NCBI GenBank assembly: GCA_963802945.1
Contig: CAWDKY010000030.1
Location: 96,001-160,000, forward strand
Source: an uncultured delta proteobacterium
Lineage (GTDB): Bacteria; Desulfobacterota; RBG-13-43-22
Direction of reading: 5' to 3'
DNA length: 64,000 nucleotides
Positions 2-17,270 of the stretch are shown one piece after another (the first letter of the stretch is position 1; every line of letters begins with the position of its first letter). The notes under the pieces are model-generated. The model worked only from the letters and a program-made list of their open reading frames with translations. It ran no database searches and had not been told where the DNA came from. A program made the translations under genes and the position numbers.

Positions 2-1675
2 CAGAACTGGAAACAATACGCCGGATCCTTGCTGGTCTTTAATGCCGTCCTTTTCTCCTACGGCTATGTAGTCCTGGCCCTACAGCCCTGGATGCCATTG
101 AACCCCGACGGCAAGGGGATGATATCCCCCAGCACCATTTTTCAGGCCGTCACTTCGTTCATGACCAATACGGACCTCCAACACTATTCCGGAGAGCAAG
201 TTTTATCCAACTTCAGTCAGATTTTTTTCGGCATCTCCATGCTCTTCATATCGGCCGCGGTCGGCCTCAGTGCTCTGACTGCCATCATCCGGGCCTTACG
301 CAGTGACGCCAAGCTCGGCAATTATTTCCTGGATATGTGGCGAGCGGTGGTTTACATGTTCGTCCCCATCTGCATTGTCATAAGCTTCATGTTTATCTAC
401 CAAGGCAGCCCCATGACCTTCAAAAGCTCTTATCAGGTCTCCACCCTCGAGCCTGCGGCCCTGGGAACCACAGACAAAGGCGAGGTCAAGCAGCAGACCA
501 TCGTGGTCGGGCCGGTGGCGGCCTGGGAATCCATCAAGATGATCGGGACCAATGGGGGGGGGTTCCACGGTATGAACGCCGCACACCCCTTTGAAAATCC
601 CACCGGTTTGACGAATTTTGTAAACTGTCTGTCCATGATGATCTTCCCTTTTGCCCTGGTGTTTATGTACGGCCGGATGCTCAATCGCCAGCGACATGCC
701 TATATTATTTTTTCGGTCATGATGGTCTTAATGATCGGCACCATTGTCTGGTCAATCGCCTTTGACACCCTAAAACCCAACCCAGGGCTGACTGGTCATC
801 CCATGGCCAGAACCTTTGAGATCCCCAGCGCTACGGCACCAGGGGGAAAGCGGGTCGTATCCCTGCCGGCAGTCGCCGGCTTGCCGGTGGACCAGCACCT
901 GGGCAATCTTGAAGGCAAAGAAATGCGCTTCGGCACCTCGGCCGGAGCTACCTATGCCGCGGTGACGGTAGACGTGACTTGTGGATCTGTGAACGCCGAA
1001 GCCGATAGTCTCAACCCAGTTGCCGCCTTGTCGCCCATGGTCGGCATGTGGCTCAACTGCATTTACGGCGGCAAAGGGGTTGGAATGATCAACATGTTGA
1101 TCTACATCATCATCGGTATCTTCGTGGCCGGTATGATGGTGGGCAGGACGCCCGAGTATCTGGGCAAAAAAATCGGTGCCCGGGAGGTAAAGCTGGCCAT
1201 CGTCACCCTGCTGGTCCATCCGTTTTTGATTCTCCTCCCTACCGGACTCTTCGCGGCCACGACCTGGGGACTTCAAGCGGTCAGCAATCCCGGTGCCCAT
1301 GGTCTTTCACAAATGCTCTACCAGTTCTCTTCGGCTTCGGCCAATAACGGCTCGGCCTTTGATGGATTGGGGGTGGCCTATGGTTTGGCCAACAATCCGA
1401 ACCCGGCGCCGACAGCCATCCCCTGGAATATCGCCGCCGGTCTGGTGATGATTATCGGCCGCTATCTCCCGATTATTGCCCCGATGGCCATGGCGGCCTT
1501 TCTCGGAGCCAAAAAATCGAGTCCTTTTGGTCTGGGAACCCTGCGCACCGATACCGGTACCTTTGGCATCCTCTTGCTCGGAACGATTCTGATCATCGGG
1601 GCCTTGCTCTTCCTGCCGGTGGCCGTACTGGGCCCGATAGCCGAGCATTTCGGGCCTATCCCTTTCGGTGGCTAA
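2..1675 (+). CDS. kdpA: Potassium-transporting ATPase subunit A (5' partial, starts upstream of window)
   Basis: KdpA selectivity-filter motifs SFMTNTDLQHYSGE, IKMIGTNGGGF, GRTPEYLGKKI, SASANNGSAF; frame open from base 2 (QNWKQYAGSL...). Confidence 0.97.
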   Translation, partial: QNWKQYAGSLLVFNAVLFSYGYVVLALQPWMPLNPDGKGMISPSTIFQAVTSFMTNTDLQHYSGEQVLSNFSQIFFGISMLFISAAVGLSALTAIIRALRSDAKLGNYFLDMWRAVVYMFVPICIVISFMFIYQGSPMTFKSSYQVSTLEPAALGTTDKGEVKQQTIVVGPVAAWESIKMIGTNGGGFHGMNAAHPFENPTGLTNFVNCLSMMIFPFALVFMYGRMLNRQRHAYIIFSVMMVLMIGTIVWSIAFDTLKPNPGLTGHPMARTFEIPSATAPGGKRVVSLPAVAGLPVDQHLGNLEGKEMRFGTSAGATYAAVTVDVTCGSVNAEADSLNPVAALSPMVGMWLNCIYGGKGVGMINMLIYIIIGIFVAGMMVGRTPEYLGKKIGAREVKLAIVTLLVHPFLILLPTGLFAATTWGLQAVSNPGAHGLSQMLYQFSSASANNGSAFDGLGVAYGLANNPNPAPTAIPWNIAAGLVMIIGRYLPIIAPMAMAAFLGAKKSSPFGLGTLRTDTGTFGILLLGTILIIGALLFLPVAVLGPIAEHFGPIPFGG

Positions 1676-1757
1676 TTGGAGGATTGGAGTATTGGAGTAC
1701 TGGAATTTCGGAATGATGGTCTGAAAAAATCAATACTCCATCATGCCAGTACTCCAT
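1676..1757. repeat. Degenerate 8-mer tandem repeat (TTGGAGTA-like) with inverted partner arm, forming an intergenic hairpin
   Basis: ttggagga ttggagta ttggagta ctggaatt ... caatactcca tcatgcca gtactcca between kdpA and kdpB. Confidence 0.75.
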
Positions 1758-1784
1758 TAACTCATTTTAAAAAAGGAGTTTGAC

Positions 1785-3947
1785 ATGAATAACGAACCAA
1801 ATACATCTGAAGCCGTTTTGGAGAATCCTTTGGCTCCAGAGCAACCCCGCCCGTCTCGTCGTATAAAACGAAGAGGACTGTTGGAGAAGGGACCGGCCAT
1901 AGCGGCCTTGAAGCAGGCCGTTGTCATGTTGCGACCGGATATTCAGTGGAAAAATCCCGTCATGTTCGTGGTCGAGGTCGGAGCCGTGCTGACCCTTTTT
2001 TTCATTGTCCAGAAGGCCTGGGGCGGAGCGGCCAGCCAGATACCGATAAACTATTTTATTGCTCTTGATGCCTGGTTGTTTCTGACCGTGCTCTTTGCCA
2101 ACTTTGCTACGGCCCTGGCCGAGGCTCGGGGTAAGGCCCAGGCCCAATCACTCAGGCAGGCCCGTCACGACACGATAGCCTATCGCCTGAATCCGGCGGG
2201 CGGCATCGAGGAAGTTTCTTCAACGGCTTTGCAACCGGGCGATCGAGTGGTGGTGGAAGCCGGACAAACGATTCCCGGCGATGGGGAAATTATTGAAGGG
2301 GTCGCTACCGTCAACGAGTCGGCCATCACCGGCGAGTCGGCGCCGGTCATTCGCGCCGCAGGCAGCGATCGGTCCGGCGTGACCGGTGGCACCGTGGTCC
2401 TCTCCGATCGGATCGTTGTTCAGATCACCAGCGGCGCCGGCGATTCGTTCCTCGACAAGATGATCGTCCTAGTCGAGGGAGCCATCCGTCAGCGAAGTCC
2501 AAATGAAATCGCCTTGACCCTTTTGCTCTCGGCCTTTACCCTGGTTTTCTTGATTGTGGTCATTCCGATTTGGCCCATGGCCTGGAACGCCGAACAATAT
2601 ATGAAGGGCTACCTGGGTATCCAGGAACCCCTGAAAAGTCTCGGCACGGATATTCCTACCCTGATTGCCCTCTTGGTCTGTCTGATTCCCACCACTATTG
2701 GGGCCTTGCTGGCCGCCATCGGAATCGCCGGCATGGATCGCGCCCTGCAGGCCAACATCATCGCCAAAAGCGGTAAGGCCGTGGAAATGGCCGGGGACAT
2801 CGATATAGTGATGTTGGATAAGACCGGCACCATCACCGTAGGGAACCGGAATGCCACCACCTTCTTGCCGGTCGGTAAGTATTCGGCGGCCGATGTCGGG
2901 AAACTGGCTGCCCTGGCCTCGGCCGCTGATGAGACGCCCGAGGGGAAAAGCATCGTGGCCTTATTCGAAAAACAAACCGACTTCCCAACCATTGTGCCGC
3001 CTGAGGCACGGTTCGTGCCTTTTACCGCCCAAACCCGCATGAGCGGCATCGATCTTCCGGAAGGGCAGCAAATACGGAAAGGGGCCTCTGATGCCGTCAT
3101 CGAATTCGTCAAGAGCAACCACGGCAGCGTACCGGATGATCTCAGGGGATTGGTGGATTCAGTGGCCTCTAAAGGCGCTACTCCTCTGGTTGTGGCTGAT
3201 GGCCCTCAAATCGCCGGCTTAGTCGTTCTTGAGGATATTTTGAAACCCAACATACACGAGCGCTTTGAGCGTCTAAGAAAAATGGGGCTGCGGACCGTTA
3301 TGATCACCGGAGACAACCCGCTAACGGCGGCAACCATCGCTAAAGAGGCTGGCGTGGATGACTTTCTGGCCCAAGCCACACCGGAAACCAAGCTGGCTTA
3401 CATCCGGAAGGAGCAGGCTGCTGGAAAGCTGGTGGCCATGATGGGGGATGGCACGAACGATGCCCCGGCCTTGGCCCAGGCCGATGTGGCCCTGGCTATG
3501 AATGCCGGCACCCAGGCGGCCAAAGAAGCGGCCAATATGGTTGATCTGGACAGTGATCCCACCAAGTTAATTGAAGTAGTGGAAGTCGGAAAACAACTCC
3601 TGGTGACCAGAGGCTCCCTGACGACCTTCTCCATCGCCAACGACGTCGCTAAATACTTTGCCATCATTCCATCTCTGTTTGCGGGCACCTTACCCTGGTT
3701 GAAGATGATCGATATCATGCATCTCCATTCGGCCACCTCGGCCATCCTTTCGGCCGTAATCTTTAATGCCATCATCATCCCCTTACTCATTCCGGTGGCG
3801 CTCAAAGGAGTCAAATTCCGGCCCCTCGGCGCTGACGCTTTATTGCGCCGTAATATGTTGATCTGGGGACTGGGGGGGGTGATTTTACCTTTTATTGGCA
3901 TTAAGCTGATCGACCTCATTATGGCCGGTCTGCATTTGATCAGTTGA
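1785..3947 (+). CDS. kdpB: Potassium-transporting ATPase subunit B (P-type ATPase)
   Basis: [26 protein letters not shown] phosphorylation motif, [10 protein letters not shown]; RBS aaaggag upstream. Confidence 0.98.
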
Positions 3948-3959
3948 CCCTACTGTGAA

Positions 3960-4151
3960 TTAACAGGATGCGGAAAAACTCATTTTTTACAGGTTGCTCA
4001 AAAAGGTCCAGATACAAGGCGCCCGAAACTCCGAGGAATGAGGCGTACATAGAAGTACGTCGCAATAAGCCTGCCCCGCTGAAAGGCGGGGAGGGATGAG
4101 GGCAATCCCGCCGTTGGCGGGATAGATGGGCCTTTTTCAGCAACCTGTTAA
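3960..4151. repeat. MITE/REP-like structured intergenic repeat, copy 1
   Basis: 22-bp imperfect inverted repeats acaggttgctcaaaaaggtcca / tgggcctttttcagcaacctgt; core caaggcgcccgaaa..ccgaggaatgag.cgtacatagaagtacgt shared with 31142-31281 and partly with 32955-33140. Confidence 0.85.
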
Positions 4152-4163
4152 GGAGACAAAAAC

Positions 4164-5178
4164 ATGTTACGATATCTTTCAAAAAGCCTTTGGTTGTTGT
4201 TAATCCTGGTAGTCATTTGCTGTGGTCTTTATCCAATGGTCTTGTGGACGATCGGACAGTCGCTCTTTCCCTTCCAGGCCAATGGCAGCCTGGTGCGAGG
4301 TCCCGACGGCAAGCCGGTGGGGTCACGACTCATTGCCCAGCCTTTTACCAAGGATGAATACTTCCAACCTCGTCCATCCGCAGCATCCTACGATGCCAGC
4401 GGCCTCAAATTCCTCGGCCTTGGCGCCTTCCAACTACGCCTTGCGCGACCGGGTCGCCCGCACCCTCGGGCCGATTGTCAAATATCGAAGCGGTTCCAAA
4501 GCCGGACAACTCGTAGCACCGGACATCGAAAGCTGGTTTCAAAAGGATAAGTTTCAGGGCAGCCCGCACATCGTGGCCCAGTGGGCCGACCTGCACAACG
4601 CCCTGGCCCAGGCCTGGGTCAAGGCCGATCCAAAAAACAGCGCCTATGTGGATGCCTGGGCCAAGGCCCATCCCGCCTTAGTGACCCAATGGATCAAGGG
4701 GAATCCAACCACTCCCCAACCGAAGGCTCCCGACCTGGCGGTTTTGTTTTTCGAAAACTTTTCCAAAGGAAACCCCAGCAAGTTTCCTTCAGCCGTCACC
4801 CATAAAGGGGTCGATGGAAAAGAAGTAGCCACCATCGAGCCGATCCAGGAGGGCTCGGACATTCAGTCGATCTTCTTTGATATGTGGCGTCAGGAACATC
4901 CCGAGGCCGACCTCCAGGATGTACCCGGCGATCTGGTTACCGCTTCCGCTTCAGGGCTCGATCCTCATATCACCCTTCAGAATGCCGAATTTCAGCTCGA
5001 ACGCGTTGCCTCAAAATGGGCGGCTAACCTAAAACGCGACCCAAGTCTTGTTCGTAAAGAGATCGAGCAGATATTGCGGAAAAACTCCTCAGCGCCCTTT
5101 GGAGGTCTTGCCGGCGAGAAATTCATTAATGTGCTTGAAGTCAATCTTGAACTAATTAAACGATTCGGAAGGCCATGA
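4164..5178 (+). CDS. kdpC: Potassium-transporting ATPase subunit C, long form (~338 aa), one frameshift near 4401
   Basis: N-terminal TM + FPFQANGS, GSRLIAQPF, YFQPRPSA in ORF 4164; SALAPSN, DLVTASASGLDPHI, INVLEVNLEL in ORF 4222; removing one G in agcggcctca joins the two frames. Confidence 0.9.
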
Positions 5179-5236
5179 CCGCACAGGTGTAATAAAGGGA
5201 TTGATCATCCGGCCCGAATAAGAAGGAAAATCTTTC

Positions 5237-5264
5237 TTGCAAATAAAAATCGATCTCTTACAAT
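5237..5264 (+). promoter_or_regulatory. Putative sigma70 promoter for the sensor-kinase genes
   Basis: TTGCAA-16 bp-TACAAT upstream of 5336. Confidence 0.4.
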
Positions 5265-5335
5265 AATTAGATTAAGAAATAACTTGGCCTGGTACTGGCG
5301 ATAGTTAAAGGTCATTAACTAAGAAAAGGATAGTC

Positions 5336-7165
5336 ATGTTAGGTCTTCGCCAAAAATTATCCCTCGGGTTTGCAGGCCTTCTGGTCATTATCCTGGTTAT
5401 CGGAATCCAGAGCATTGTTCATCTCAGTAATCTGGGAGAATCCATCGATGTCATACTGAGGGAAAACTATCAAAGTGTCATCGCCTGCCAGGAAATGAAA
5501 GAAGCCCTGGAACGCATAGACAGCGGAGTACTATTTACCCTTCAAGGATACACCCAGAAGGGAAATGAACTGATCGGTAAAAATAAGCAAGCCTTTGAAA
5601 AGGCCCTTCGGATTGAGCTGAATACTATTACCCTTGCCGGAGAAGGGGAAAAAGCAAATCTTCTAAAACAACAATTTGGCCGGTACGAAATGATGCTCAA
5701 AGAGATAGAGGATGGAAGCCTTTCCATAGCTGTTCGCCGCCAAAACTATTTCAGCCGACTACTTCCTTTATTCTATTCCATTAAAAACACGGCTGATGAA
5801 ATCCTTCAAATGAATCAGCAAAATATGAGTGAAGCCAATGATCGGGCGCGCCGCCATGCCGCCGCCGCCAAAAGAGGGATGTATATTCTTTTATTGGTGG
5901 GGACGCTCATCGCCGTGGGGTTTATATTTTTTATCGGTAAATGGGTCCTCCGTCCCATCAATCGTCTCATTGTTTCGGCCAATGAAATCAAGAAGGGAAA
6001 TCTGGATTTATGGGTTCAAAGCAGTTCCCGCGACGAAATCGGCCGTCTCTCCGAAGCCTTCAATGAAATGGCGGCCGGCATTCGAGAGTTCCGTCGGTCC
6101 AACCGATCCAAACTATTTCGTATCCAGCAGGCCACCCAACAGGCCTTTAGCAGCCTACCGGAAGCCGTAGCGGTTATTGACCCGGAAGGCAAGGTGGAGG
6201 TAGCCACGGAAGCGGCCAAGAATTTTTTTGGCTTGCAGCCCAACACCCCCATCAAAGATTTGCCTCTTGAATGGCTAAACGGTTTGATCCAGGAAGCCCT
6301 TAAGCTGGGCCGCATATCAGAGCCCAAAGGCAATCAAACGGTCATCCAACATTTTATCCAAGGAGAAGAGCGCTACTTTCGCCCCGAGGCGGTGCCCATC
6401 CTGGATAGTGAAAGACAACCCACCGGGGTCGTCCTGGTCCTTAAGGACGTCACCCAGCTCAGACAGCAGGATGAAATAAAAAGAGGCATGATCTCCACCG
6501 TGTCCCATCAGCTCAAAACGCCTCTCACTTCCATTCGTATGGCCATCCATCTGCTGTTGGAAGAAAAAGTAGGTTCCCTCACGGAACAACAAGTCGATCT
6601 TCTTTTAACAGCCCGGGAAGACAGCGACCGGCTGCATAATATCCTCAACAACCTGCTGGATATCAGCCGCATCGAATCCGGAAAGACCAAAATGGAATTT
6701 CAGGCGGCTTCCCCGAATTCCATTCAACTGGAAGCCCTGGAGCCCTTTTGGAGGGCAGCCCACGACCAAGGAGTGACTCTTAGCGTCGAGATACCGGGAG
6801 ATTTGCCTGAAGTTTGGGCCGACTCGACCAGAATCTACTATGTCATCGGCAATCTCCTTTCCAATGCCCTCAGATACACTCCACACGGCGGTAAGATCAC
6901 CTTTTCGGCCCAGGCGGAAGAAAAGGAGGTCCGTTTTTTTATCGCTGATACGGGAAAAGGGATTCCCAGGCAGTATCTCCCCAGAATTTTTGAACAATTT
7001 TTTCGGGTCCCCGGCCAGGAAAAGGAATCAGGGGCCGGTCTTGGACTGGCCATTGTTAAAGAGATCATCGAAGCCCATGGCGGGACAGTGAGTGTTGAAA
7101 GTCAGGAAGGCCAGGGAAGCACCTTCGCCTTCACTCTAAGAAGGGTGGAACAGGCATCTGATTAG
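5336..7165 (+). CDS. Sensor histidine kinase (TM-periplasmic helical bundle-TM-HAMP-PAS-HisKA-HATPase), Kdp-associated
   Basis: H-box SHQLKTPLT, N-box NLLSNALRY, G1 DTGKGI, G2 GAGLGLAI; HAMP DEIGRLSEAFNEM. Confidence 0.92.
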   Translation: MLGLRQKLSLGFAGLLVIILVIGIQSIVHLSNLGESIDVILRENYQSVIACQEMKEALERIDSGVLFTLQGYTQKGNELIGKNKQAFEKALRIELNTITLAGEGEKANLLKQQFGRYEMMLKEIEDGSLSIAVRRQNYFSRLLPLFYSIKNTADEILQMNQQNMSEANDRARRHAAAAKRGMYILLLVGTLIAVGFIFFIGKWVLRPINRLIVSANEIKKGNLDLWVQSSSRDEIGRLSEAFNEMAAGIREFRRSNRSKLFRIQQATQQAFSSLPEAVAVIDPEGKVEVATEAAKNFFGLQPNTPIKDLPLEWLNGLIQEALKLGRISEPKGNQTVIQHFIQGEERYFRPEAVPILDSERQPTGVVLVLKDVTQLRQQDEIKRGMISTVSHQLKTPLTSIRMAIHLLLEEKVGSLTEQQVDLLLTAREDSDRLHNILNNLLDISRIESGKTKMEFQAASPNSIQLEALEPFWRAAHDQGVTLSVEIPGDLPEVWADSTRIYYVIGNLLSNALRYTPHGGKITFSAQAEEKEVRFFIADTGKGIPRQYLPRIFEQFFRVPGQEKESGAGLGLAIVKEIIEAHGGTVSVESQEGQGSTFAFTLRRVEQASD

Positions 7166-7288
7166 ATGCTTAACGGCGACTTGAGGAGAAATTGGAAATC
7201 GGATTTCGATATTCGAACTGGGTGGCGGCCAGAATCCGGCCCTGGTCCCTGGATCGGATTACGAAATAAGAACACATAGGAGAAGGCT

Positions 7289-8137
7289 ATGAATGGTGAC
7301 ATTTTAAAACCAGATGAATTTCAACCCCGAAAGGTCCGTTTGTCCGATTATGAAACGGGCTTCCTGCTTTTTGTTTTGGCTACCCTACTCTGTTTTTTAA
7401 TGTACCCCTACTTTCACCTCAGTAATCTCATCATGATCTATTTATTGGAGGTGATGATAACGGCCGTCAGCTGTGGGCGAGGCCCGGCTGTCCTAAATTC
7501 TCTTCTAAACGTTCTGGCCTTTGATTTCTTCTTTGTCCCGCCCCGTTTTTCATTCACCGTGGAAGAGGCCCAGTACATTGTTACCTTCATCGTGATGTTT
7601 CTGGTTGCCTTGGTCATCAGTCACCTGACGAACCGTTTAAGGCAACAGGCCCTACTTGCCCGAATACAAGAGCGGCAGGCAACCGCCCTGCATGGTCTCA
7701 GTCGCCAACTCGCCAGTACCCGAGGGATGAAAGAGATTTTCCAGGTGGCCGTGAAGTATCTTTCCGAGATTTTTGATTGCCCAGTTATGGCTTTACGACT
7801 GAACGAACAGGATAAGTTTGAGGTAGCTGCCGGGGACCTCTCTTCAATTCTTCATCAGGATATCATGAAAGAAATAAATATCGCCCGCCAGGCTTATAAT
7901 ACCGGACAAATAACCGGGGTGGGAACACAATCCTCTTTGACAACCGAAAATCTATATATACCCATTCGAGCGACTGATTATATCTCTGGTATTTTAGTCC
8001 TCCGCCCCTCAGATCGGGAACAATTTCAATATCCCCGGCAATTGACACTTTTGGAATCATTAGTCAAACAAATTGCTCTGACTTTGGAAGTAGAACACAT
8101 CAACGAAAGCAAAAAATTCAGAGAGATGGAAGCTTAA
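7289..8137 (+). CDS. Stand-alone KdpD membrane (DUF4118) + GAF module without kinase domain
   Basis: SNLIMIYLL, AFDFFFVPPRFSFTV, YIVTFIVMFLVALVISHLT followed by GAF-like region, as in the central part of KdpD. Confidence 0.85.
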   Translation: MNGDILKPDEFQPRKVRLSDYETGFLLFVLATLLCFLMYPYFHLSNLIMIYLLEVMITAVSCGRGPAVLNSLLNVLAFDFFFVPPRFSFTVEEAQYIVTFIVMFLVALVISHLTNRLRQQALLARIQERQATALHGLSRQLASTRGMKEIFQVAVKYLSEIFDCPVMALRLNEQDKFEVAAGDLSSILHQDIMKEINIARQAYNTGQITGVGTQSSLTTENLYIPIRATDYISGILVLRPSDREQFQYPRQLTLLESLVKQIALTLEVEHINESKKFREMEA

Positions 8138-8154
8138 GAAAAATTCTGTATCTT

Positions 8155-9357
8155 ATGAGTGACGACAGAGCCAATGCCTTTCTGAGAATGATCCGTCACG
8201 CCCAGCGCGGCCGGTTGAAGGTCTATCTGGGCTATTGTCCGGGGGTAGGGAAAACCTATCAAATGTTACAAGAAGGTCACCGGCTTAAAAAAGATGGGAT
8301 CGACGTCGTTATCGGACTTATTGAAACCCATGGCCGGGTCGATATCGCCAAACTGGCCGAAGGGCTGGAGGTCGTCCCCAGGCGTCGGCAGGAATACCGC
8401 GGCGTTCCCGTGGAAGAAATGGATGTTGATGCGATCCTGGCGCGCAAACCCCAATTGGCCCTGATCGATGAATTGGCCCATACCAATGTTCCCGGGAGCC
8501 CGAATCCAAAACGCTATCAGGATGTTCAGGATATCTTGGCCGCTGGGATCCATGTCATCACCACCTTGAACGTACAACATTTGGAAAGCCTTTATAACCT
8601 GGTGGAAAAGGCCGTGGGGGTCAAGGTCCGGGAGCGTCTTCCCGATTCGGTTCTGGCTGAAGCGGACCAGATCGTCGACGTAGATTTGTCCACCGAAGAT
8701 CTGCAAAAACGACTGGAAGAAGGGAAGATCTATTCTCAAGAGCGTATCCCGATGGCGATGAGTAATTTTTTTAGGACTTCGAATCTGGAAAAGCTCCGGG
8801 AATTGACCCTTCGAGAACTTGCCTCCCAGATCGATTTGAGAAGGCGGGAAACGGAATCCAAAGAGATGGATGCCACACCTGCCTCAGACCAGGTGATGGT
8901 CTGTCTGAGCTCACGCGGCCCCAATAGCGACAAGTTGTTGCGTTATGCCTCCCGCCTGGCCGGAAAATTGAACCAAAACTGGTATGCCGTCTATGTTCAA
9001 ACCCCTTCCGAGGAAGCCACGGTCATCGAGGCCCGCACCCAGCGTCTGCTTTCCGACACCCTGACCTTGGCCAAACAATTAGGTGCCCTGGTTTTTACGT
9101 ATAAGGGAGAAGACATTGCGGATACCATCCTTAGGTTTGCCAAGGAATACCGGGTTGGGCACATTGTGATCGGGAAACCGGGACCAAAACCTTTCTTTAA
9201 AAAATTCGGAAAGAATAAAAACATTGTGGGAAATCTTGTCAAAAATGCCCGGGGGGTCACAATGGTCGTACTGGATACCCGCGAAGAGCAATTAAGCCCG
9301 GTCATGGATCGTCAAGGCATCCCGGAAACGACCTTGCCGGCCTCACCCTCAGCCTGA
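8155..9357 (+). CDS. kdpD: KdpD N-terminal (KdpD) domain + Usp domain, cytoplasmic
   Basis: GRLKVYLGYCPGVGKTYQML Walker-A-like motif, IDELAHTN, TTLNVQHLESL, LRELTLR; Usp region VMVCLSSRG...IVIGK. Confidence 0.9.
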   Translation: MSDDRANAFLRMIRHAQRGRLKVYLGYCPGVGKTYQMLQEGHRLKKDGIDVVIGLIETHGRVDIAKLAEGLEVVPRRRQEYRGVPVEEMDVDAILARKPQLALIDELAHTNVPGSPNPKRYQDVQDILAAGIHVITTLNVQHLESLYNLVEKAVGVKVRERLPDSVLAEADQIVDVDLSTEDLQKRLEEGKIYSQERIPMAMSNFFRTSNLEKLRELTLRELASQIDLRRRETESKEMDATPASDQVMVCLSSRGPNSDKLLRYASRLAGKLNQNWYAVYVQTPSEEATVIEARTQRLLSDTLTLAKQLGALVFTYKGEDIADTILRFAKEYRVGHIVIGKPGPKPFFKKFGKNKNIVGNLVKNARGVTMVVLDTREEQLSPVMDRQGIPETTLPASPSA

Positions 9358-9401
9358 AATCAAACCTATACCCCAGAAGCCGTTGATGTTGCATCAATTC
9401 C

Positions 9402-9839
9402 TTGACTCCGCAACGTATTCTCATTTGGGATCAGCCGGTCCCCAAAGAGATGATACTTCAACAACTCGTGGAAGCCGCGGCTAAACAGAAAGAGATCGGC
9501 GATCCGGAGATCGTATTGAAAGAGGTTTTGAAGCGGGAAGAACAGGGATCGACCTTTTTTAACGAAGGCGCGGCCTTCCCCCATGCCAGGATAAAGGGTC
9601 TCTCTTCTCCGATAGTCGCCCTGGGATTCCCCAGAAAAGGCGTCTCGGATATAGCTACCGATAAACCTATTGAAATCGTGTTTTTAATCCTTTCTCCCGC
9701 CGATGCTCCAGATACCCAGGTTAAAGTTTTAGGTCTGGCCAGCCGCGCCGCTTTAAACAGATCCCTACTGCAAAATTTCAAATCTGCCCAATCCCCGGAA
9801 GAAGTGTTATCCGCAATCCGCAATTGGGAAATCGAGTAA
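9402..9839 (+). CDS. PTS EIIA (Ntr/fructose-type) domain; possibly the C-terminal domain of the preceding KdpD-Usp protein
   Basis: REEQGST...GAAFPHAR phospho-His motif, IVFLILSP; TTG start without clear RBS. Confidence 0.8.
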   Translation: MTPQRILIWDQPVPKEMILQQLVEAAAKQKEIGDPEIVLKEVLKREEQGSTFFNEGAAFPHARIKGLSSPIVALGFPRKGVSDIATDKPIEIVFLILSPADAPDTQVKVLGLASRAALNRSLLQNFKSAQSPEEVLSAIRNWEIE

Positions 9840-9864
9840 AAATCCACATAGTTTTCAGATCACT

Positions 9865-10079
9865 GTGCCGGAGTGGGGTCTGTTTTTTCCCCGTTACTTA
9901 TCGATTAATAAACGCACCTGGTCAGGCTTGGTTTTCGGGACAGGATATTTTGAGCAGAAATCCAGAAAATATCTAAGCCATTTTTTAAAGTCCGCGCGCA
10001 GTGTCGGTGCAACGGTTCTTTTTTCAAGAACAGCGTCAAACCTCGACAGAACGGTATCCGGGATGGGCAGCATCGGCAT
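9865..10079 (-). pseudogene. intI: Truncated integron integrase (N-terminal SAM-like extension only)
   Basis: MLPIP...FDAVLEKR..ADFKKWLRYFLDFCSKY..DQVRLLIDK*RG/KKQTP resembles from memory the N-terminal extension of deltaproteobacterial IntI; divergent from a cassette array; no catalytic domain follows. Confidence 0.7.
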
Positions 10080-10176
10080 TGAACAGTTAACCTCCTAAGA
10101 AGTTAAATACAATATTGAACAACCTAAGTAAAATAATAATATCAGATAGATTTATCAATAACATTTAAATTAAATA

Positions 10177-10205
10177 TTGACAATCACAGAACTTGTTGAT
10201 ATTAT
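10177..10205 (+). promoter_or_regulatory. Cassette promoter Pc (sigma70, extended -10)
   Basis: TTGACA-17 bp-TATTAT with TG motif, immediately upstream of attI core. Confidence 0.75.
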
Positions 10206-10235
10206 GAAAGGAAACTATTCAATATATTGTTATGG
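10206..10235 (+). other. attI-like site, core GTTATGG at 10229-10235
   Basis: GTTATGG is the exact reverse complement of the R'' box CCATAAC (10830-10836) closing cassette 1; left boundary approximate. Confidence 0.7.
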
Positions 10236-10258
10236 TTTATCGAGAAGGGAGTAAAAAA

Positions 10259-10835
10259 ATGGCTGAATACAAACTAAGCTGGCCAAATGTTACAAACCCC
10301 GCGACACTTTCCTATTTGTGCCATTTTTGCGGAAACAAGGTTGCCTCAGAAAAAGGATGGATTGCTAATACTCACGTTTCAAACGTTCATGCATATGTCT
10401 TCGTATGCCCAAGCTGTACTAAGCCGACATTCTTTGACACGGATCGCAGGCAAATTCCAGCGCCGCGTCTTGGAAATTCGGTAAACGGCATTACTGATAA
10501 GGGGGTCGAAGGTTTGTATAATGAGGCACGTGATTGCTCAATGGTTGGAGCAAATACCCGCTGCCGTGCTTCTCGCTAGAAAGCTACTTATGAATATTGC
10601 GGTTCAGCATGGGGCACAAGCTGGAAAAACATTTATAGATTACATTGACTATCTCTCTGACAATGGTTTCGTTCCTCCAAATGGCCGAACTTGGGTAGAC
10701 CAGATACGCAAGAAAGGTAATGAAGCGACTCATGAAATTCCACAGACCACAGAACAGGATGCACGGCAAATTCTGACATTCACAGAAATGTTGTTGAAAT
10801 TTGTTTATGAATTTCCATCGATGGTTAACCCATAA
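10259..10835 (+). CDS. Cassette 1: Zn-ribbon + DUF4145-like (HEPN-related) protein, frameshift near 10557
   Basis: CHFC/CPSC zinc ribbon; LYNEARDC..AAVLLARKLL..IRKKGNEATH (Rx4-6H-like); stop overlaps attC R''. Confidence 0.75.
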
Positions 10836-10882
10836 CAATCGGCTGCAGCCAATCGCCGATAAATCCGGCTCTGGCTGAGCCG
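10830..10882 (+). other. attC site 1, damaged (R' GTT box missing)
   Basis: CCATAAC-aat-cggctgcagcc...ggctgagccg stem with extrahelical G; no GTTRRRY after L'. Confidence 0.7.
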
Positions 10883-10902
10883 CATTCAATGGAGGTGTAC
10901 TA

Positions 10903-11583
10903 ATGACTTGGTGGCAGACAGCTTTAGAATTTGCAAAAGCCAATACCTCCAGCATAATTGTGTCACTAATTATTGGTTTCCTTTTCTTTGTGCTTGGCCC
11001 CATTGGTCTTTGGTTTTCTGGAAGAAGAATTCGGAGAGAGAGGTTACGCAAGGCTAAGGATTCGATGGTCGACCTTTTGGAAGGCATGCTTGTCAATCAG
11101 GAAGATGTAACGCCCGAGAAACTTGATCTACTGTTTAATGCTGTGGGCCGCGAAATCGATGTGAGCCTTCATGGAGTATATGACGGCGATCTATTGATCG
11201 AGGACATGATGCTGCGTTTTCAAAAGAGCAGACACTTAGATGCACAACAGAAGCAGGACTACTTTGCAAAATTGAGGAATGTGAGATTGGCACTCCATGA
11301 AAAACCAGAGAGCATAATCAAACGTCCGTTGCCAAGGCGAGATCAAGAGATTATTGACGACATTCGGGTTAAAGTTAGTGAACAAAAGGAAGTTAATGAA
11401 CTTCTCAATGAGCTTCAAAGCCGACTAGAAAGAAAAGCAGATGTGTCTGATCCCATTCTGGGTCCGTTCATTTTGGTTAGCCGAATGATGAGAAGGGATC
11501 CGAAAAGATTTGTACTTATTTGTTCCGTAGCTGCCTTATTTTATTTGGGTGTTGTACTGACTTTCCTCCGTTTCTTCAAATAA
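10903..11583 (+). CDS. Cassette 2: hypothetical protein with N- and C-terminal TM helices
   Basis: 226-aa ORF, RBS ggaggt, hydrophobic ends, bounded by attC sites. Confidence 0.75.
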   Translation: MTWWQTALEFAKANTSSIIVSLIIGFLFFVLGPIGLWFSGRRIRRERLRKAKDSMVDLLEGMLVNQEDVTPEKLDLLFNAVGREIDVSLHGVYDGDLLIEDMMLRFQKSRHLDAQQKQDYFAKLRNVRLALHEKPESIIKRPLPRRDQEIIDDIRVKVSEQKEVNELLNELQSRLERKADVSDPILGPFILVSRMMRRDPKRFVLICSVAALFYLGVVLTFLRFFK

Positions 11584-11592
11584 CTGTAAGAT

Positions 11593-11655
11593 ACCCAACT
11601 AAGGGCTGGAGAAGGATGCTCGTTACACGCGGACCTCTCAGCCCAATCGTTGGCG
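11593..11655 (+). other. attC site 2
   Basis: ACCCAAC...gggctg(g)aga(a)gg / cctctcagccc...GTTGGCG, two extrahelical bases. Confidence 0.85.
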
Positions 11656-11728
11656 CCGCCTAACGGCGTCGCCAATATGGCGTTGCCCCTATCGGGTCCA
11701 TGTCCCGGCCGGCTCCGCCGCAGGCGAT

Positions 11729-11798
11729 CGCCAACCAGGCCATTGGACACCGATGTCACTTGCTTGCATGGGCCTTCGGCCCCCGCAACCTGCGTGCC
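11729..11798 (+). other. attC site 3, left half only (truncated by the Y1 element)
   Basis: R'' CGCCAAC exactly complements GTTGGCG at 11649; L''-like gccattggac and terminal loop present; L' and R' absent. Confidence 0.6.
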
Positions 11799-11862
11799 AT
11801 GGAAATAAAGGGTCAGGTCTATTTTCTTGACATTGAAGATGTAGTAATGATATAGGATATTC

Positions 11863-12711
11863 ATGGCACGTCCTCTACGCATAGTATTTCCCGGGGCTGT
11901 TTATCATGTTACCAGTCGAGGAAATAACAAAAATGAGATTTTTAAGGATGCTCAAGACCGTGAGGATTTTCTCAAAATCCTTCACCAGGTTAACAGGCGC
12001 TATAACTGGCTCTGCCATGCCTATTGTCTGACGAATAATCATTATCATTTGCTCATCGAAACACCGGATGGAAAACTTTCCATTGGGATGAGACAATTAA
12101 ATGGGGTATTTACCCAGTTGTTCAACAAGCGACATGGAACCGTTGGCATTTATTCCAGGGCAGATTCAAGGGTATTCTGGTGCAAAAGGATAGCCATCTT
12201 CTAGAAGTTTCCCGTTATATCGTACTGAATCCGGTAAGGGCGAAAGTCATAAAAAACCCGAACCAGTGGAAATGGAGCAGCTATGCGGCCACAGCAGGGC
12301 AGCGAAGTAAGCCCTCTTGCCTTTCAGTTGATGGGATCTTGGGGCAACTTTCACCCGAAAAGATTAAAGCAGAAGGAATCTATCGCCAGTTTGTTAGGGC
12401 TGGAATAAGATCGGAATCCATTTGGAAGGATTTGAGAGTCAGAGCATCCTGGGGGAGGATTCTTTTGTGGAACGTTTAAAAGATCATCTGAAGGGGAAAG
12501 AGGCCATTCCTGAAATTTCAAAAAGCCAACGTTTTATTAACAGACCCTGTTGGAAAAAATATTACCCCCCGAATTGATCCGAAAAAAGGAAGCAAGAAAT
12601 AAACGGATATTGAAGGCAGTGGAGAGATACGGTTACACCCAAAAGCAAGTTTCTGAGTATTTAATTACATTTTTCCTTCAATAAGCCGTATTATACGGAC
12701 ACAGGTAAAAT
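11863..12711 (+). pseudogene. REP-associated tyrosine transposase-like (Y1_Tnp) with C-terminal HTH, several frameshifts
   Basis: MARPLRI..PGAVYHVTSRGNN, YCLTNNHYHLL (HUH), YIVLNPVRA, WKWSSY; tail AVERYGYTQKQVSEYL. Confidence 0.85.
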
Positions 12712-12730
12712 AAATAATGTTAAAAAAATA

Positions 12731-14356
12731 GGGTCTGTTGCCCAAAATATAATTTATAAATCATAAGAGTAAATAAAAGCTGGCTTGGGAAGATAGCCGA
12801 AAGGGAATCCTCTCCAAAAACGATTGGCCAGACGGATTAATAGCCTTTTCGGATGTCCTTTCTGATTCTTATTGGCCGCTGCCGGCCTTTGCTCTTTGAC
12901 ATGACGTATCAGGATTAGGATGTTCTGTAAGGAAGCCGTCAGGTATTCCTGAATCTGGACTCTCCAGAGATTTCTCCACCTGGCCCGTTTAAATCCATAA
13001 CGGGTAGCTTGGGCAAAACTTCGTTCCATCAGATGCTGGCGCAGATGAAGATCCTTCTTAGAATCGGAGGACCCAGCCTTGGCTCTCATCTGGCTGAGAT
13101 CTTCATGCCGTAGATGCCGATTGATGGATCGGCTGGTTCGGGAACGGGTACATTGGTCTTTAAGCGGACAAGACCGAAAAACCTTTCGGGCACAGACATA
13201 ATCCACGGACCGGCGTTGGGTATGATAGCGTCGAAGCGCTAAACACTGCCCGGCAGGACATTGGTAGGTGTCGGTCTGGGGGTCATAAACAAAAGCCTCC
13301 TCAGGAAAGATACCGCTCGACTGCCGGATTTTTCCTGTTGTCCTTTAAGATCGGGAATATGGGCGGCTATTTGAAGATCGTGGCAGTGCAGGAAGTTTTC
13401 CACCGTCCCATACTTGCTGTCGGCTACCACCGTCTCGACGGCCTTTTCCGTGTTCTCCTGATGCTCCTCTATCAAGGTTGGTAAGCGATGAGCTTCATTG
13501 ACCTGTCCCGGAGTGACTTCGGTAGCTGTAATCATTTCCGCTTGGCCATCCACGGCTCGATGCACCTTGTAGCTCAACTTGGGATTTCCTCTTCCTTGAC
13601 GGATCACTGAGGCTTCCGGATCGGTCGTAGAAATATAGCGCCGGTTGACTTCTCCCGACAGGGGTTTCTCGGACGGTTGCTCTTTAAGCCGGGCTTCCAA
13701 CTCTTGATAACTCTGGTTCAGATAGCGTTTCAAGGACTCCCGATTCACCACCGAATCATTGGCCGCATCGGCCTGAACCAGACTGGAATCCATAAAAAGT
13801 TTGGCACCATCCACCAATCCCGCCTCCACACATTGCCAAACGATTCGTTCAAAAAAATATTTGAAGGCCTCTACTCCCCAACGGCTCCGGGCCTTACTCA
13901 AAACACTGTGATTCGGAATCTCATCGTCCAGGTCATAGCCCAAAAACCACAGCCAGTCTAAACGCTCAGGAATAGTAGTCATGAGTTCCCGTTCCGATCT
14001 CACATTATACAGAATCAACAACAGCATCAGTTTGAGAATAACCGGTGGAGGCACAGAAACATTACCCTTCATCCCATAGCTTTCTTTAACTTCATTATAA
14101 ATAAAATCAAAGTCTATGAGTTCGGCAATCTTTCTAAGGGGATGATCTGGTCGTACTCTTTGTTCAAGGTGTAAGCCATAGTAAAATAACTTTCCCTGAT
14201 TCTCTTTGGATTCATAACCCATCATGATGGAAAACCTCTTGATTAAAGATGAGGCTATGATATCATAATAATTAAATATATCATACAGTTATTTTAATTT
14301 TATCGCAATTTTTTTAACTTAAATCGTGGCTAACTGAGGATTTGGGCAACAGACCC
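12731..14356 (-). mobile_element. IS1182-family insertion sequence, 1626 bp
   Basis: Perfect 16-bp terminal IRs gggtctgttgcccaaa / tttgggcaacagaccc; AATA direct repeats at 12727-12730 and 14357-14360. Confidence 0.92.
12754..14225 (-). CDS. IS1182-family DDE transposase (one frameshift near 13315)
   Basis: DHPLRKI, SERELM..WFLGYDLDDEIPNHSVLSKAR (DUF772-like), STTDPEA, VADSKYG, C-terminal Cys cluster and ERSFAQA. Confidence 0.88.
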
Positions 14357-14421
14357 AATAGACCTGACCCCGAAATCCGGCAACACCATTGGTAAGCGGC
14401 TGTTGATATATTTGAACGGGA

Positions 14422-14595
14422 ATGGAAATGACAAGGAACATGTCTGTCGTGCTTTACATTGTGGGGTTGATTGCCGTTGTCGTTAGTGTAGATTTACTGT
14501 TCTTTAAGAATCGATTCTGGGAACGGCTGATAGTGAACATCGGCATTGTCTTGGTGTTTGCCGCCTTCTATTTGAGATTCCTAAAGAACCCGTAG
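14422..14595 (+). CDS. Cassette gene: 57-aa two-TM small membrane protein (below ORF-track cutoff)
   Basis: MEMTRNMSVVLYIVGLIAVVVSVDLLFFKNRFWERLIVNIGIVLVFAAFYLRFLKNP, followed by attC. Confidence 0.7.
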   Translation: MEMTRNMSVVLYIVGLIAVVVSVDLLFFKNRFWERLIVNIGIVLVFAAFYLRFLKNP

Positions 14596-14621
14596 GCTAT
14601 TCGCCGCGGCACCAGCTGGTT

Positions 14622-14701
14622 GCCTAACACCCACATCGAGTCCGACAGGCTTACCCTTCCGCTACGCTCCGGCAACCCCAGGCTCATTTGCTACGTTAAA
14701 C
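14622..14701 (+). other. attC site 4
   Basis: GCCTAAC...cacat(c)gagtc / ggctcatttg...GTTAAAC. Confidence 0.75.
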
Positions 14702-14727
14702 TGCAGGTCAAAAGGAACGGGCAAGCC

Positions 14728-15306
14728 ATGAACCAAAAGATCGTCACACCAACACCCTATGGTTCGATATGCATTTTTCTTCACCCATGCCAATCAAGGG
14801 CCAAAGGTGGTCCGGGTCCTTCTCTCCAAGCCCGGTTTACCGGCTGAGCGCCAAGCCTCAGAATTGTATCCGACTGTAAGCGTAGCTTCTTGTTCGGAGA
14901 TTGACGCCGTAGGTGCAGGTATGAAAAGGCTACTTGCCGGCGAGCCATAGAGTTTTCCCTTCTCTCGCGGACCTCGATCAGTGTAGTGAATTCCAGAAGC
15001 GAGTTCTTCGGGCTGAGCATGCGATTCCGAGGGGAAGGGTAAGCACGTATCGACTCATTGCGGCGTATTTGGGGAAGCCGAACGGCGCCCGGGCTGTCGG
15101 AACGCATTGGCCAATAATCCAGTCCCACTCATCGTGCCGTGTCACCGTGCCATTCGCTCTGACTGGCAGCTCGAGGCTACCAAGGCGGCCTCGAAATGAA
15201 GCAAGCACTTCTGGAGAAGGAAGGCTTTGCATTCGATAGCTCTGGAAAAGTAATTTCCTCACATTTTTACTATGATAGAGCCGGTCGAACAACCGGCTCC
15301 AGCTGA
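14728..15306 (+). pseudogene. ogt: Cassette gene: methylated-DNA--protein-cysteine methyltransferase, multiple frameshifts
   Basis: SEFQKRVL..IPRGRVSTY..GARAVG, then ANNPVPLIVPCHRAIRSD (PCHR active site) and YQGGLEMKQALLEKEG in other frames. Confidence 0.85.
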
Positions 15307-15334
15307 CCTTCGGCAGCTGAGCCGAGCGTTACCC
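15284..15334 (+). other. attC site 5 (very short, 51 bp)
   Basis: GTCGAAC-aac-cggctc(c)agctg(a)cc-ttc-ggcagctgagccg-agc-GTTACCC. Confidence 0.8.
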
Positions 15335-15364
15335 ATGGAACAAAAATGGTGATTGCTTTTATGG

Positions 15365-15392
15365 TTGACGGTATGATATAATGTCATACTAT
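15365..15392 (+). promoter_or_regulatory. TA operon promoter with operator palindrome
   Basis: TTGACG-16 bp-TACTAT overlapping GTATGA-N7-TCATAC inverted repeat. Confidence 0.65.
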
Positions 15393-15410
15393 AACCAGGA
15401 GGGTAACGAG

Positions 15411-15653
15411 ATGGGTAAAGAAAAAATAGCCATTACACTTGATGAGGAATTCATTAGCGAATTGGATCGACTGGTCAAGAGGCACGTTTTTCAAAACCGC
15501 AGCCAGGCCATCCGAGAAGCGGTTAGCGAGAAATTACTGCGACTCAAACGAAGCCGACTGTCGATTGAATGTTCCAAACTCGACCGGTTAGCTGAAAAGG
15601 CCATGGCTGAGGAAGGAATGACCGAGGATGTGAACCAATGGCCGGAATTTTAA
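15411..15653 (+). CDS. Ribbon-helix-helix (CopG-type) antitoxin
   Basis: KIAITLDEEFISELDRLV..FQNRSQAIREAV; acidic tail; RBS aggagg; overlaps toxin start. Confidence 0.85.
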   Translation: MGKEKIAITLDEEFISELDRLVKRHVFQNRSQAIREAVSEKLLRLKRSRLSIECSKLDRLAEKAMAEEGMTEDVNQWPEF

Positions 15654-15973
15654 GAGGCGAGATTCGATGGGCGGACCTAAACCCCACCCGAGGTCGAGAG
15701 CAGGCTGGTCTCCGCCCAGTATTGATCCTCAGTCACGACATCTTTAACGAGCGATCTGGAACTGTCATAGCCGTCGCTATCACGAGCCAGTCACAGAAAG
15801 CCGGATTCCCTCTGACACTTGAACTGAAATCGGGCACCCTACCAAAACAATCATGGGCTAAGATCAGTCAAATCCGAACTCTCTCCATCGAAAGAATCGG
15901 AAAGCTTATTGGCAAGACTTCTCAGGAAGAATTGATTCAGGTCATTGAAGGACTGAACGAGATCATTGCGTAA
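15638..15973 (+). CDS. mazF: PemK/MazF family endoribonuclease toxin
   Basis: RGEIRWADLNPTRGREQAGLRPVLILS, QIRTLSIERI. Confidence 0.92.
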   Translation: MAGILRGEIRWADLNPTRGREQAGLRPVLILSHDIFNERSGTVIAVAITSQSQKAGFPLTLELKSGTLPKQSWAKISQIRTLSIERIGKLIGKTSQEELIQVIEGLNEIIA

Positions 15974-16026
15974 CCATGCAGCGAATCGGCCAGAACTACG
16001 GCCTCTCGCTGATCCCGGCGTTACCC
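15968..16026 (+). other. attC site 6 (last of array, degenerate)
   Basis: GCGTAAC overlapping toxin stop; cagcga..ggcc / ggcc..tcgctg stem; GTTACCC. Confidence 0.65.
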
Positions 16027-16074
16027 GGCATGTTGCCCATTGACAACATTGACAATGATTTTTTGAAGACTTCT

Positions 16075-16467
16075 TCACCGATCAGGCTTTTTAGGCGGGA
16101 TGAAAATAAACGATAGGCATATTGCAATAAAAAAAGCAATGTTAAGATCCGTAAACATCCGGTCAGGCCAGTCGTAATACAAAAACTTGTGTACCCAATG
16201 GGAAATAAAACCCTGGGGATAAAGAAATGACTGACCGGCCCCTCGACGTAGATTAGTCTCCCATTCTGTTAAGGGACAGAAAATGCCAAAAAAAGTCTCC
16301 AAAATCACAATCCCCATAGCCGCCAAATGGGTCCACCGAAAGAGCGGATTATAAATCGATTTCCACTTAAGAAAAAAGCCCAGCCAGATATAGACCAATC
16401 CCAAGATAATGTAGAATACGTAAGCGAAATGAAAAAGCATGACCAGATTTGCAAAAATGGCATTCAT
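16075..16467 (-). CDS. DUF2784-like membrane protein
   Basis: HFAYVFYI..HLAAMG..CPLTEWETNLR..GFISHWVHKFLYYD. Confidence 0.75.
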   Translation of the reverse strand: MNAIFANLVMLFHFAYVFYIILGLVYIWLGFFLKWKSIYNPLFRWTHLAAMGIVILETFFGIFCPLTEWETNLRRGAGQSFLYPQGFISHWVHKFLYYDWPDRMFTDLNIAFFIAICLSFIFIPPKKPDR

Positions 16468-16524
16468 TACAGCCAGGTTTTGCCGATCAACCCCAAGACG
16501 ACCTGTTCCAGTCCATCCTGGAAT

Positions 16525-17270
16525 TATTAAATTAACAGCTCAATAAGAAAGCGGGCAAAAGCTCTTAGTCCCGTTCTTTCCTGGTCGGTGAGCCAGGAAT
16601 AGGCCGCCTCCCATTTCTCCCCTAAGGGACCGCCTCCGACCCACCCGATTCGGCCATGGTTTCAATCGGCAGAACAATTTTTAAAAAGGCCGCTATCCCG
16701 AGTCTGCGCAGGGCGGAATCGTCCCGGATCATCTCCCAGGTTTGCCGTTCCTCCTCAGTACTCTCTGATGAATACTCCAATAGACGGGTTTGGTAAAGTC
16801 CACTACCCCGTTCGATGAGCAGACGGACCACATCTGCATCTTTAATGGCTACGGAGAGCAGGAAAACCAGTTGTTGAAGCCTGGGCATATCCAGGCCTGC
16901 TTGCCTTCCAGCCTCTTGTAGCTGTGTGGAAAATCGGAACTGGTAAAATTCAGGGGTCCCATGCAGCAGGCGCGTGGCCGATTTCGTGTTGGACTATACC
17001 CTTGACTAAAGGTTCTGGAACGTCTTTGATCTTTTCAATGGGGATGTGAATCCTGGGGTAACCCCTCCAAGCTTCATGGGTAGCTAAAAAATTTGATTCT
17101 CCGTTGGTGGTAACACCTAATTCGGCTTTTTCTCTGGCGTCGAATTCCTGAAAATCCAAGGTTTTCTCCCATAAAAATATGGAAATCCGGGACGGTACTT
17201 TATTCCGATCTGCCGGACCGACTTTCCCTGGGCCATAAATCGACTTTCGCTAAAATGCTATCATCCCCAG
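16525..17270 (-). pseudogene. Fragmented hypothetical protein with HEXXH motif
   Basis: Consecutive minus-strand fragments (16950-17159, 16622-16888) containing QHEIGHA; boundaries approximate. Confidence 0.45.

Follow-up and report, generated by a model that had tools for sequence, protein, structure and literature searches.

What kind of element places a Y1/HUH transposase gene between inverted repeats within an array of small cassettes, and does the array have any part in it? The locus that raises this question lies at 11810-14370 of a 64,000-nt stretch of DNA (hereafter the window; positions 96,001 to 160,000 of contig CAWDKY010000030.1, assembly GCA_963802945.1) from an uncultured delta proteobacterium of the Desulfobacterota lineage RBG-13-43-22. 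The assembly of this genome, G000, has 72 contigs, denoted here by C-numbers. We conclude, at a probability of about 85%, that the locus holds a dead TIRtron copy. A TIRtron is a unit of ~0.93 kb that carries one TIRYT gene between 25-bp terminal inverted repeats. We assign it to this known class because every sequence-level character of the class is found in it.

The element and its relation to TIRtrons

The 14-mer GGGTCAGGTCTATT is found at 11810-11823 on the forward strand and, with 100% complementarity, at 14357-14370 on the reverse strand. With up to two mismatches it has three sites in the window against 0.42 expected, a number reached or exceeded in 2 of 100 shuffles. Once an insertion sequence (IS) nested in the right repeat is taken out, the unit measures 934-935 bp and its 25-bp inverted repeats agree at 23 of 25 positions, with the right end reading GGGGTCAG and the left end having an A in place of the first G. 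The initial annotation had described just this arrangement, namely a compact Y1 element of ~0.93 kb with a C-terminal helix-turn-helix, bounded by 25-bp repeats matching at 23/25 after removal of IS1182, and both the alignment of the ends and the helix-turn-helix models bear it out. Its remark that no target duplication is evident also stands, for the window unit, where no direct repeat was found on the two sides, as well as for the 63 family elements described below. The gene retains a Pfam Y1_Tnp match in frame 11863-12204 (E 1e-10). Relative to the intact copy on C33, it contains five indels (three 1-nt deletions, one 2-nt deletion and one 1-nt insertion) and is therefore a pseudogene. The window copy is dead, inactivated by these five indels and by the IS1182-family insertion in its right repeat.

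The intact 284-residue protein of the C33 copy (P0001) carries Y1_Tnp at residues 14-120 (E 1.3e-12). It passes the NCBIfam model for REP-associated tyrosine transposases (NF047646, REP_Tyr_transpos; 84.9 bits, cut-off 80) and scores 19.1 bits against the IS200 model NF033573, under the cut-off of 55. The HUH triad H60-Y61-H62 and Y119, which lies in an R-Y-x-V-x-N-P stretch, are invariant in 25 of 25 aligned homologues. Helix-turn-helix models (HTH_3/HTH_23) match residues 243-281 weakly, below the Pfam gathering scores; across the 25 members the tail matches HTH_3 in 24, HTH_23 in 17 and HTH_28 in seven at E <= 0.01. The sole solved relative found by sequence is E. coli TnpA-REP (PDB 4ER8), with a weak E of 0.35.

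The left repeat of the window copy contains TTGACA, which the initial annotation had taken for the element's own -35 box. Across the family, 45 of 70 left ends have TTGAC at +15 to +27, compared with 8 of 73 right ends. In 38 of those 45 left ends it is followed 15-20 nt downstream by TANNNT, which is usually preceded by TG. Since the box and its spacing to TANNNT are conserved in left ends, we regard the -35 box as a conserved feature of the family and as part of a putative promoter of the gene, in agreement with the earlier proposal. The initial annotation further suggested that the element may be autoregulated, its helix-turn-helix binding the repeat.

These characters are those of a class that already has a name. 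Di Nocera, De Gregorio and Rocco (2013; PMC3733652) introduced the name TIRYT for a RAYT-like gene with terminal inverted repeats on either side, and TIRtron for the whole unit; the pertinent passages of their paper give an end motif, GGGGWSAS, together with solo, dimeric and grouped repeat copies that form moderately abundant repeat families. In the corresponding passages of Quentin et al. (2018; PMC6006769), 20 of 26 TIRYT examples are placed in subclass 2.1 of TnpA-Y1 (TnpA-REP-like), a subclass with Bac_DnaA_C-, HTH_23- or HTH_28-like tails. The two names were found in the literature only in these two studies (and the preprint of the second), both of which are computational, and a text search for GGGTCAGG gave nothing relevant among the matches listed. 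The window element resembles the class in its Y1/HUH protein, which is longer than a RAYT (284 residues in the intact copy) and has a helix-turn-helix tail, in a gene set between terminal inverted repeats at a fixed distance, and in the solo and paired end repeats present in the genome; the motif GGGGWSAS fits the (G)GGGTCAG ends, and we find no difference in kind. The suggestion that this is a poorly described new class of element has thus to be given up, given that ends, tail and gene match those published in 2013 and 2018. Several features do not appear in the passages of the two papers that deal with TIRYTs. One is the presence of several near-identical full copies within a single genome, and another the derivatives of 255 and 137 bp; the others are an 11-base core that stays conserved among homologues with as little as 42% protein identity, a left-end-specific -35 box, and duplications at the junctions.

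Copies in this genome and across the family

Within one mismatch, the 14-mer has 37 sites genome-wide, against 1 for a reversed control pattern. The inverted repeat is more than chance, and this count is the best evidence for it. The sites form six inverted pairs, the window copy included. The full copies on C16 and C33 are 94.5% identical to the window copy, and gene-less derivatives, a stump and solo ends are also present (Table 1). The flanks of the copies are unrelated from the first base beyond GGGTCAGG. Paralogues of 324-326 residues encoded in G000 were searched for GGGTCAGG ends, and none were found.

The 11-mer core, with one mismatch allowed, has 170 sites in G000 against 74 for the control, including 55-bp and 146-bp inverted pairs. 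Other repeat families also start with GGGTCAGGTCT (C29:72691-72745, C29:28529-28674, C27:60-76 kb, C30:274-297 kb (outside the window), C14:129454 and C15:516517). The 55-bp and 146-bp pairs belong to these families, as does a cluster of five members, and for none of them was a full-length gene that matches seen in G000.

Homologues were sought far beyond this genome. At least 8000 candidates were scored, many of them on contigs of 0.9-1.5 kb, as repeats are, and further scans gave 499 loci in genomes and at least 597 in metagenomes. We examined the best 80 of the 499 loci from named genome records (metagenome-assembled genomes of Nitrospirota, Thermodesulfobacteriota and Omnitrophota) and an independent set of 80 metagenome loci with 42-64% protein identity. 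In the genome set, GGTCAGGTC (at most one mismatch) is found upstream in 73 of 80 loci and inverted downstream in 74 of 80, and nearly all of them have 51-55 nt between the left terminus and the start codon. In the metagenome set, GGGTCAGGTC (at most two mismatches) is found at 67 of the 73 left ends and 61 of the 69 right ends that could be tested. Homologues in both sets thus carry GGGTCAGGTCT / AGACCTGACCC ends, which was the check that the initial annotation had proposed, and most of these ends read (G)GGGTCAG. The same arrangement of gene and ends is present on a complete plasmid of a cultured isolate, Legionella adelaidensis, at 44% protein identity.

The extent of the unit is equally constant. 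Copies from different genomes (22 related pairs) align across 918-974 bp only, and complete units measure 915-944 bp (n=63). Among these 63 elements, boundary repeats of 2-4 nt occur in 16, against 12.4 expected from shuffled partners, which is no excess, and a 6-mer shared by both boundaries occurs in none. No conserved target tetranucleotide was seen, just a weak T-(A/G) directly outside the ends. Conserved hairpins were not found in 32 left and 32 right ends (every second of the 63); the consensus folds had energies of -1.21 and 0 kcal/mol and lacked any compensatory pair. Of 201 sampled genomes, 53 have a match at E <= 1e-40, and the best identities inside the genus are just 59-76%, so the family is patchy across the phylum and shows no pattern of orthologues. 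Public annotations call the homologues 'RelE toxin', 'transposase' or 'RayT'. Copies at unrelated sites, in G000 and in other genomes, have the whole unit in common and no sequence beyond it, and we conclude that the element is mobile in this lineage.

The nested insertion is itself of a kind that recurs at such ends. Its transposase gene is broken in two frames (13239-14225 and 12754-13206), which score 220.5 and 60.2 bits against NF033551 (profile positions 3-180, the best stretch of the first frame, and 388-484 in the second, of 488); each stays under the 270-bit cut-off because the gene is broken. It resembles the IS1182 family in its NF033551 match, in its DUF772 and DDE domains, in having inverted ends of its own, and in a 4-bp duplicate, AATA, that brackets it at 12727-12730 and 14357-14360. 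Two further copies in G000 (C17:15321-17032 and C33:76063-77689) are 96-97% identical, and all three adjoin end-like sequence of the GGGTCAG.T.TAT type. The window copy and that at C33:76063 occupy the identical position in the repeat, after GGGTCAG.T.TATT, with the same 4-bp duplicate, while the third adjoins GGGTCAGGTCTATA. In two relatives (L143 and L144), one copy lies between inverted GGGGTC..ATCTT words and another beside GGTCTATA. As copies recur in or beside such ends, their placement suggests that this IS1182-family element prefers TIRtron ends as targets.

Table 1. Window element, its copies and derivatives in G000, and adjoining features. Positions without a contig number are those of the window.
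Feature	Position	Strand	Length	Details
Left terminal inverted repeat	11810..11834	+	25 bp	First 11 bases, GGGTCAGGTCT, are the family-wide conserved core
Putative promoter	11827..11856	+		TTGACA 11827-11832 inside left repeat, 18-nt spacer, TG-n-TATAGG 11848-11856; ATG at 11863
TIRYT gene, pseudogene (RAYT-like Y1/HUH tyrosine transposase, C-terminal helix-turn-helix)	11863..12713	+		Pfam Y1_Tnp; alignment to C16 and C33 copies
Right inverted repeat, inner part	12716..12730	+	15 bases	Split from remainder by nested IS
Nested IS1182-family insertion sequence	12731..14356	-	1626 bp	Pfam DUF772, DDE_Tnp_1, DDE_Tnp_1_6; NF033551
Right inverted repeat, outer part	14361..14370	+	10 bases	GACCTGACCC; beyond nested IS
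Full copy	C16:245750-246683		934 bp	99.9% identical to C33 copy
Full copy	C33:35403-36337		935 bp	Intact 284-aa frame at positions 54-908
Gene-less derivative	C17		255 bp	Internal deletion
Gene-less derivative	two contigs		137 bp	
Left-end stump	G000		63 bp	Solo ends also present
Nearest attC-like hairpin, complete, uninterrupted	11593..11655	+		Folds; heuristic match; outside element
Truncated copy of repeat X (cassette-leader repeat)	11646..11802	+	~170 nt when full	Last ~17 nt gone; context only, outside element
Other copies of repeat X	C53:153053-153205, C29:199035-199185, C37:13714-13804, C17:401323-401412, C17:201280-201350, C16:245701-245743			

Duplications at the junctions and a possible mechanism

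At about a fifth of TIRtron ends, the junction between flank and terminus is duplicated in short tandem, and the duplicated piece joins flank sequence particular to the locus to the opening few bases of the end. With a period of 7-16 and at most one mismatch, such duplications are found at 34 of 140 ends of the genome set, compared with 7 of 3200 positions taken at random from these loci, and at 19 of 124 ends of the metagenome set, against 12 of 2715 control positions (control rate 0.2-0.4%). Their placement is narrow. End points as far as 40 nt into the element were permitted, yet in 39 of 40 cases the duplication ends within the first 8 nt, where positions 1-2 and 6 form peaks, and in 38 of 40 it starts 6-13 nt outside the terminus; triple copies also occur. 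Because they are present in the finished plasmid and at the right end of the C33 copy as well (G000 C33:35380-35403), these duplications are no artefact of a single assembler. The main text of Di Nocera et al. (2013; PMC3733652) contains no word with the stem 'duplicat'.

We tentatively propose that TIRtrons are autonomous insertion sequences with a mode of HUH transposition that has not been described, in which nicking is single-stranded and symmetric at inverted ends, no target is duplicated, and the position-locked duplications are scars left by the enzyme; we hold this as possible rather than probable. In our main reading, too, the helix-turn-helix tail would bind the conserved core GGGTCAGGTCT on duplex DNA, and the Y1 domain would make symmetric single-strand nicks, one per end and on opposite strands, and would reseal them by the HUH phosphotyrosine mechanism. 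After repeated nicking near an end, a short stretch could then be synthesised by strand displacement as far as the bound protein, with resealing through the covalently held 5' end.

The cassette array and the competing readings

The surroundings of the window copy are an array of small cassettes with attC-like hairpins. By folding and a heuristic, hairpins with AAC...GTT boxes and bulged stems are recognised at 11593-11655 and in a paralogous locus on C17; others are decayed, among them one near 14621-14705. The initial annotation held that the element had landed in an attC hairpin and cut off attC3. The left flank is instead a truncated copy of a repeat, X, and the nearest hairpin is intact (Table 1). 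The element begins 7 nt past the truncated X and 155 nt from that hairpin. X extends from the GTT box of the attC-like site ahead of it, normally to a point right before a ribosome-binding site and start codon; its tail consists of two hairpins ahead of the ribosome-binding sites and start codons of unrelated small genes. Six or more full or partial copies exist in G000, and many more in the genus at 74-97% identity. An Rfam search at E <= 1 gave no family over X or the element (window 9000-17000 and the C17 locus). X could be a cassette-borne leader, a promoter or a structured RNA. In the whole assembly no integron integrase reaches the cut-off (TIGR02249, best 79.6 bits against 265). A 61-residue frame at 9897-10079, suspected to be an integrase remnant, was dismissed, as it has no Pfam match.

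Copies of the element recur in such places. The C16 element has the first 19 nt of another X on one side and the last ~70 nt on the other. A third X is found ~1 kb away from the 255-bp derivative, which lies upstream of a paralogue of the small membrane-protein cassette of the window (88% over 314 nt). In all, 3 of 7 copies or derivatives are located in such cassette arrays. This placement may reflect local preference, duplication of an element-carrying cassette, or tolerance of insertions. Comparison of the paralogous array at C17:199740-201400 with window 11740-14700 suggests the second, in that the element may have been carried along with a duplicated cassette. Both arrays share the same X tail, and that on C17 holds an extra gene of ~285 residues with a terminator, the 255-bp derivative, the 88% identical small membrane-protein cassette and a well-formed attC. 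The C33 copy and the 137-bp derivative have unrelated flanks, and X was found near 0 of 9 element copies or pieces in relatives. The enrichment of attC near homologues that the initial annotation predicted did not appear: within 400 bp of the ends, a crude heuristic gave 0.137 matches per kb (8 in the 58.3 kb that 80 loci provide), compared with 0.14 per kb for random genome sequence (42 in 300 kb) and 0.166 per kb for far flanks (34 in 205 kb). This heuristic catches one of about three attC-like sites recognised by eye in 9.5-17 kb, and because it is so insensitive its null result is weak evidence, which lends no support to a link. We conclude that this copy is in the cassette array because it landed there or was carried there, and not through a family-wide preference for attC.

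Other features of the neighbourhood are recorded for completeness. Cassettes downstream hold a frameshifted methylguanine-methyltransferase-like gene (DNA_binding_1; 14730-15240) and an intact pair of RHH antitoxin and PemK/MazF-like toxin (15381-15973). Directly upstream of the array, window 29-9354 carries a kdpABC operon and split KdpD-like sensor genes, and KdpC seems to be fused to a longer N-terminal part (318 residues, with the domain only at 221-311).

Three other readings of the element have to be weighed against that of a TIRtron. It could be a domesticated RAYT with REP-like flanking repeats, a REPtron, in which a nuclease retained by the host acts on single strands and spreads short repeats, the gene itself being immobile. 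The pass of the REP-associated tyrosine transposase model and the solo and paired end-like repeats of several sub-types in G000 (37 against 1; 170 against 74) speak for this reading, and moderately abundant repeat families of such a kind are given in the relevant passages of Di Nocera et al. (2013; PMC3733652). We nevertheless think it improbable, for the gene is present three times, with 99.9% identity between two copies at unrelated sites, the same 0.93-kb unit recurs in different genomes with unrelated flanks, copies are pseudogenised, the distribution is patchy, and the ends form no hairpins. RAYTs and REPtrons, including E. coli TnpA-REP, were reportedly described by Nunvar in 2010 and by Bertels and Rainey in 2011. 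The element shares with them the match to NF047646 and a gene bracketed by inverted copies of a repeat that is found elsewhere in the genome. It differs in having ends that are not GTAG-tagged hairpins, a multi-copy gene that moves with its repeats, and an extra tail of ~140 residues with the helix-turn-helix. Nor does it resemble the RAYT/REPIN pattern of a single-copy, vertically inherited gene with abundant REP hairpin doublets, as it has three copies, a patchy distribution and just 37 end-like sites. The searches of relatives likewise did not show syntenic single-copy orthologues throughout the genus in which the short repeats alone differ in number.

Slightly less probable again is the proposal of the initial annotation, a Y1 element that targets or remodels integron arrays through folded attC single strands. 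The window copy does lie in an array of attC-like hairpins and small cassettes, not far past one such hairpin, the C16 copy is inside X, the 255-bp derivative is near X, and X begins at the GTT box of attC. Yet what the element adjoins is X and no attC, the hairpin at 11593-11655 being undamaged. The unrelated flanks of the third full copy and of the 137-bp derivative, the lack of X at the relatives' loci, the flat attC scan and the failure of any integrase to reach the cut-off in this genome all tell against it. The least likely reading is an ordinary element of the IS200/IS605 type that moves as single-stranded DNA by means of subterminal hairpins, its inverted repeats being incidental. Elements of that group (IS608 TnpA) have a Y1/HUH domain, make no target duplication, and have unlike left and right ends with subterminal hairpins. 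The catalytic domain (Pfam Y1_Tnp) and the absence of a target duplication are shared by our element, whereas its protein scores far below the cut-off of the IS200 equivalog model, neither end has a conserved hairpin, and the ends are inverted copies of each other, quite unlike those of the IS608 type.

The reading as a TIRtron copy, mobile as a unit, has to be set beside several observations, most of which weigh against it. Contamination of G000 is 6.7%, so the copies could in principle stem from co-binned strains. When the C33 and window loci were searched in relatives, no empty allele was found, and in the only orthologous region (G005) homology is lost 23 nt before the element and the regions differ by kilobases. 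Four sequencing runs, with scattered contigs of 150-365 nt, gave no joint across the element (the best DNA set, searched as contigs only, shares 0.27 of words), and one contig of run X2 departs from the element exactly at its boundary into unlike sequence; among the sets listed, none was of RNA. X adjoins the 255-bp derivative and all but one of the three full copies, a placement that may mean a local target preference. A strict consensus promoter scan of 11700-12000 called no site in the window copy. The fold of the tail rests on weak Pfam matches under the gathering scores, because the structure model is poor: AlphaFold2, run on the 25-sequence alignment, gave a mean pLDDT of 54, with three helices at 243-283 at low confidence. 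Our literature search found no experimental report of transposition or nicking by a TIRYT, and the succession of nick, strand-displacement synthesis and resealing, of which the junction duplications would be the scars, is something we infer.

By itself, the window copy is minor, a dead transposon in a junk-rich cassette array, and the data correct the notion of a link between the element and integrons. The TIRtron family, in contrast, is very large yet known from computational naming alone. Its regularities, namely that the whole 0.93-kb unit moves, that no target is duplicated, that the 11-base core is invariant, that the left end carries a putative promoter and that the junction scars are locked in position, offer a starting point for the first biochemistry of a single-strand HUH enzyme acting at inverted-repeat ends. 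If the proposed mechanism is true, the scars would mark a nick about one helical turn from the GGGTCAGGTCT core, or just inside it, and would constitute the first map of TIRYT cut positions.

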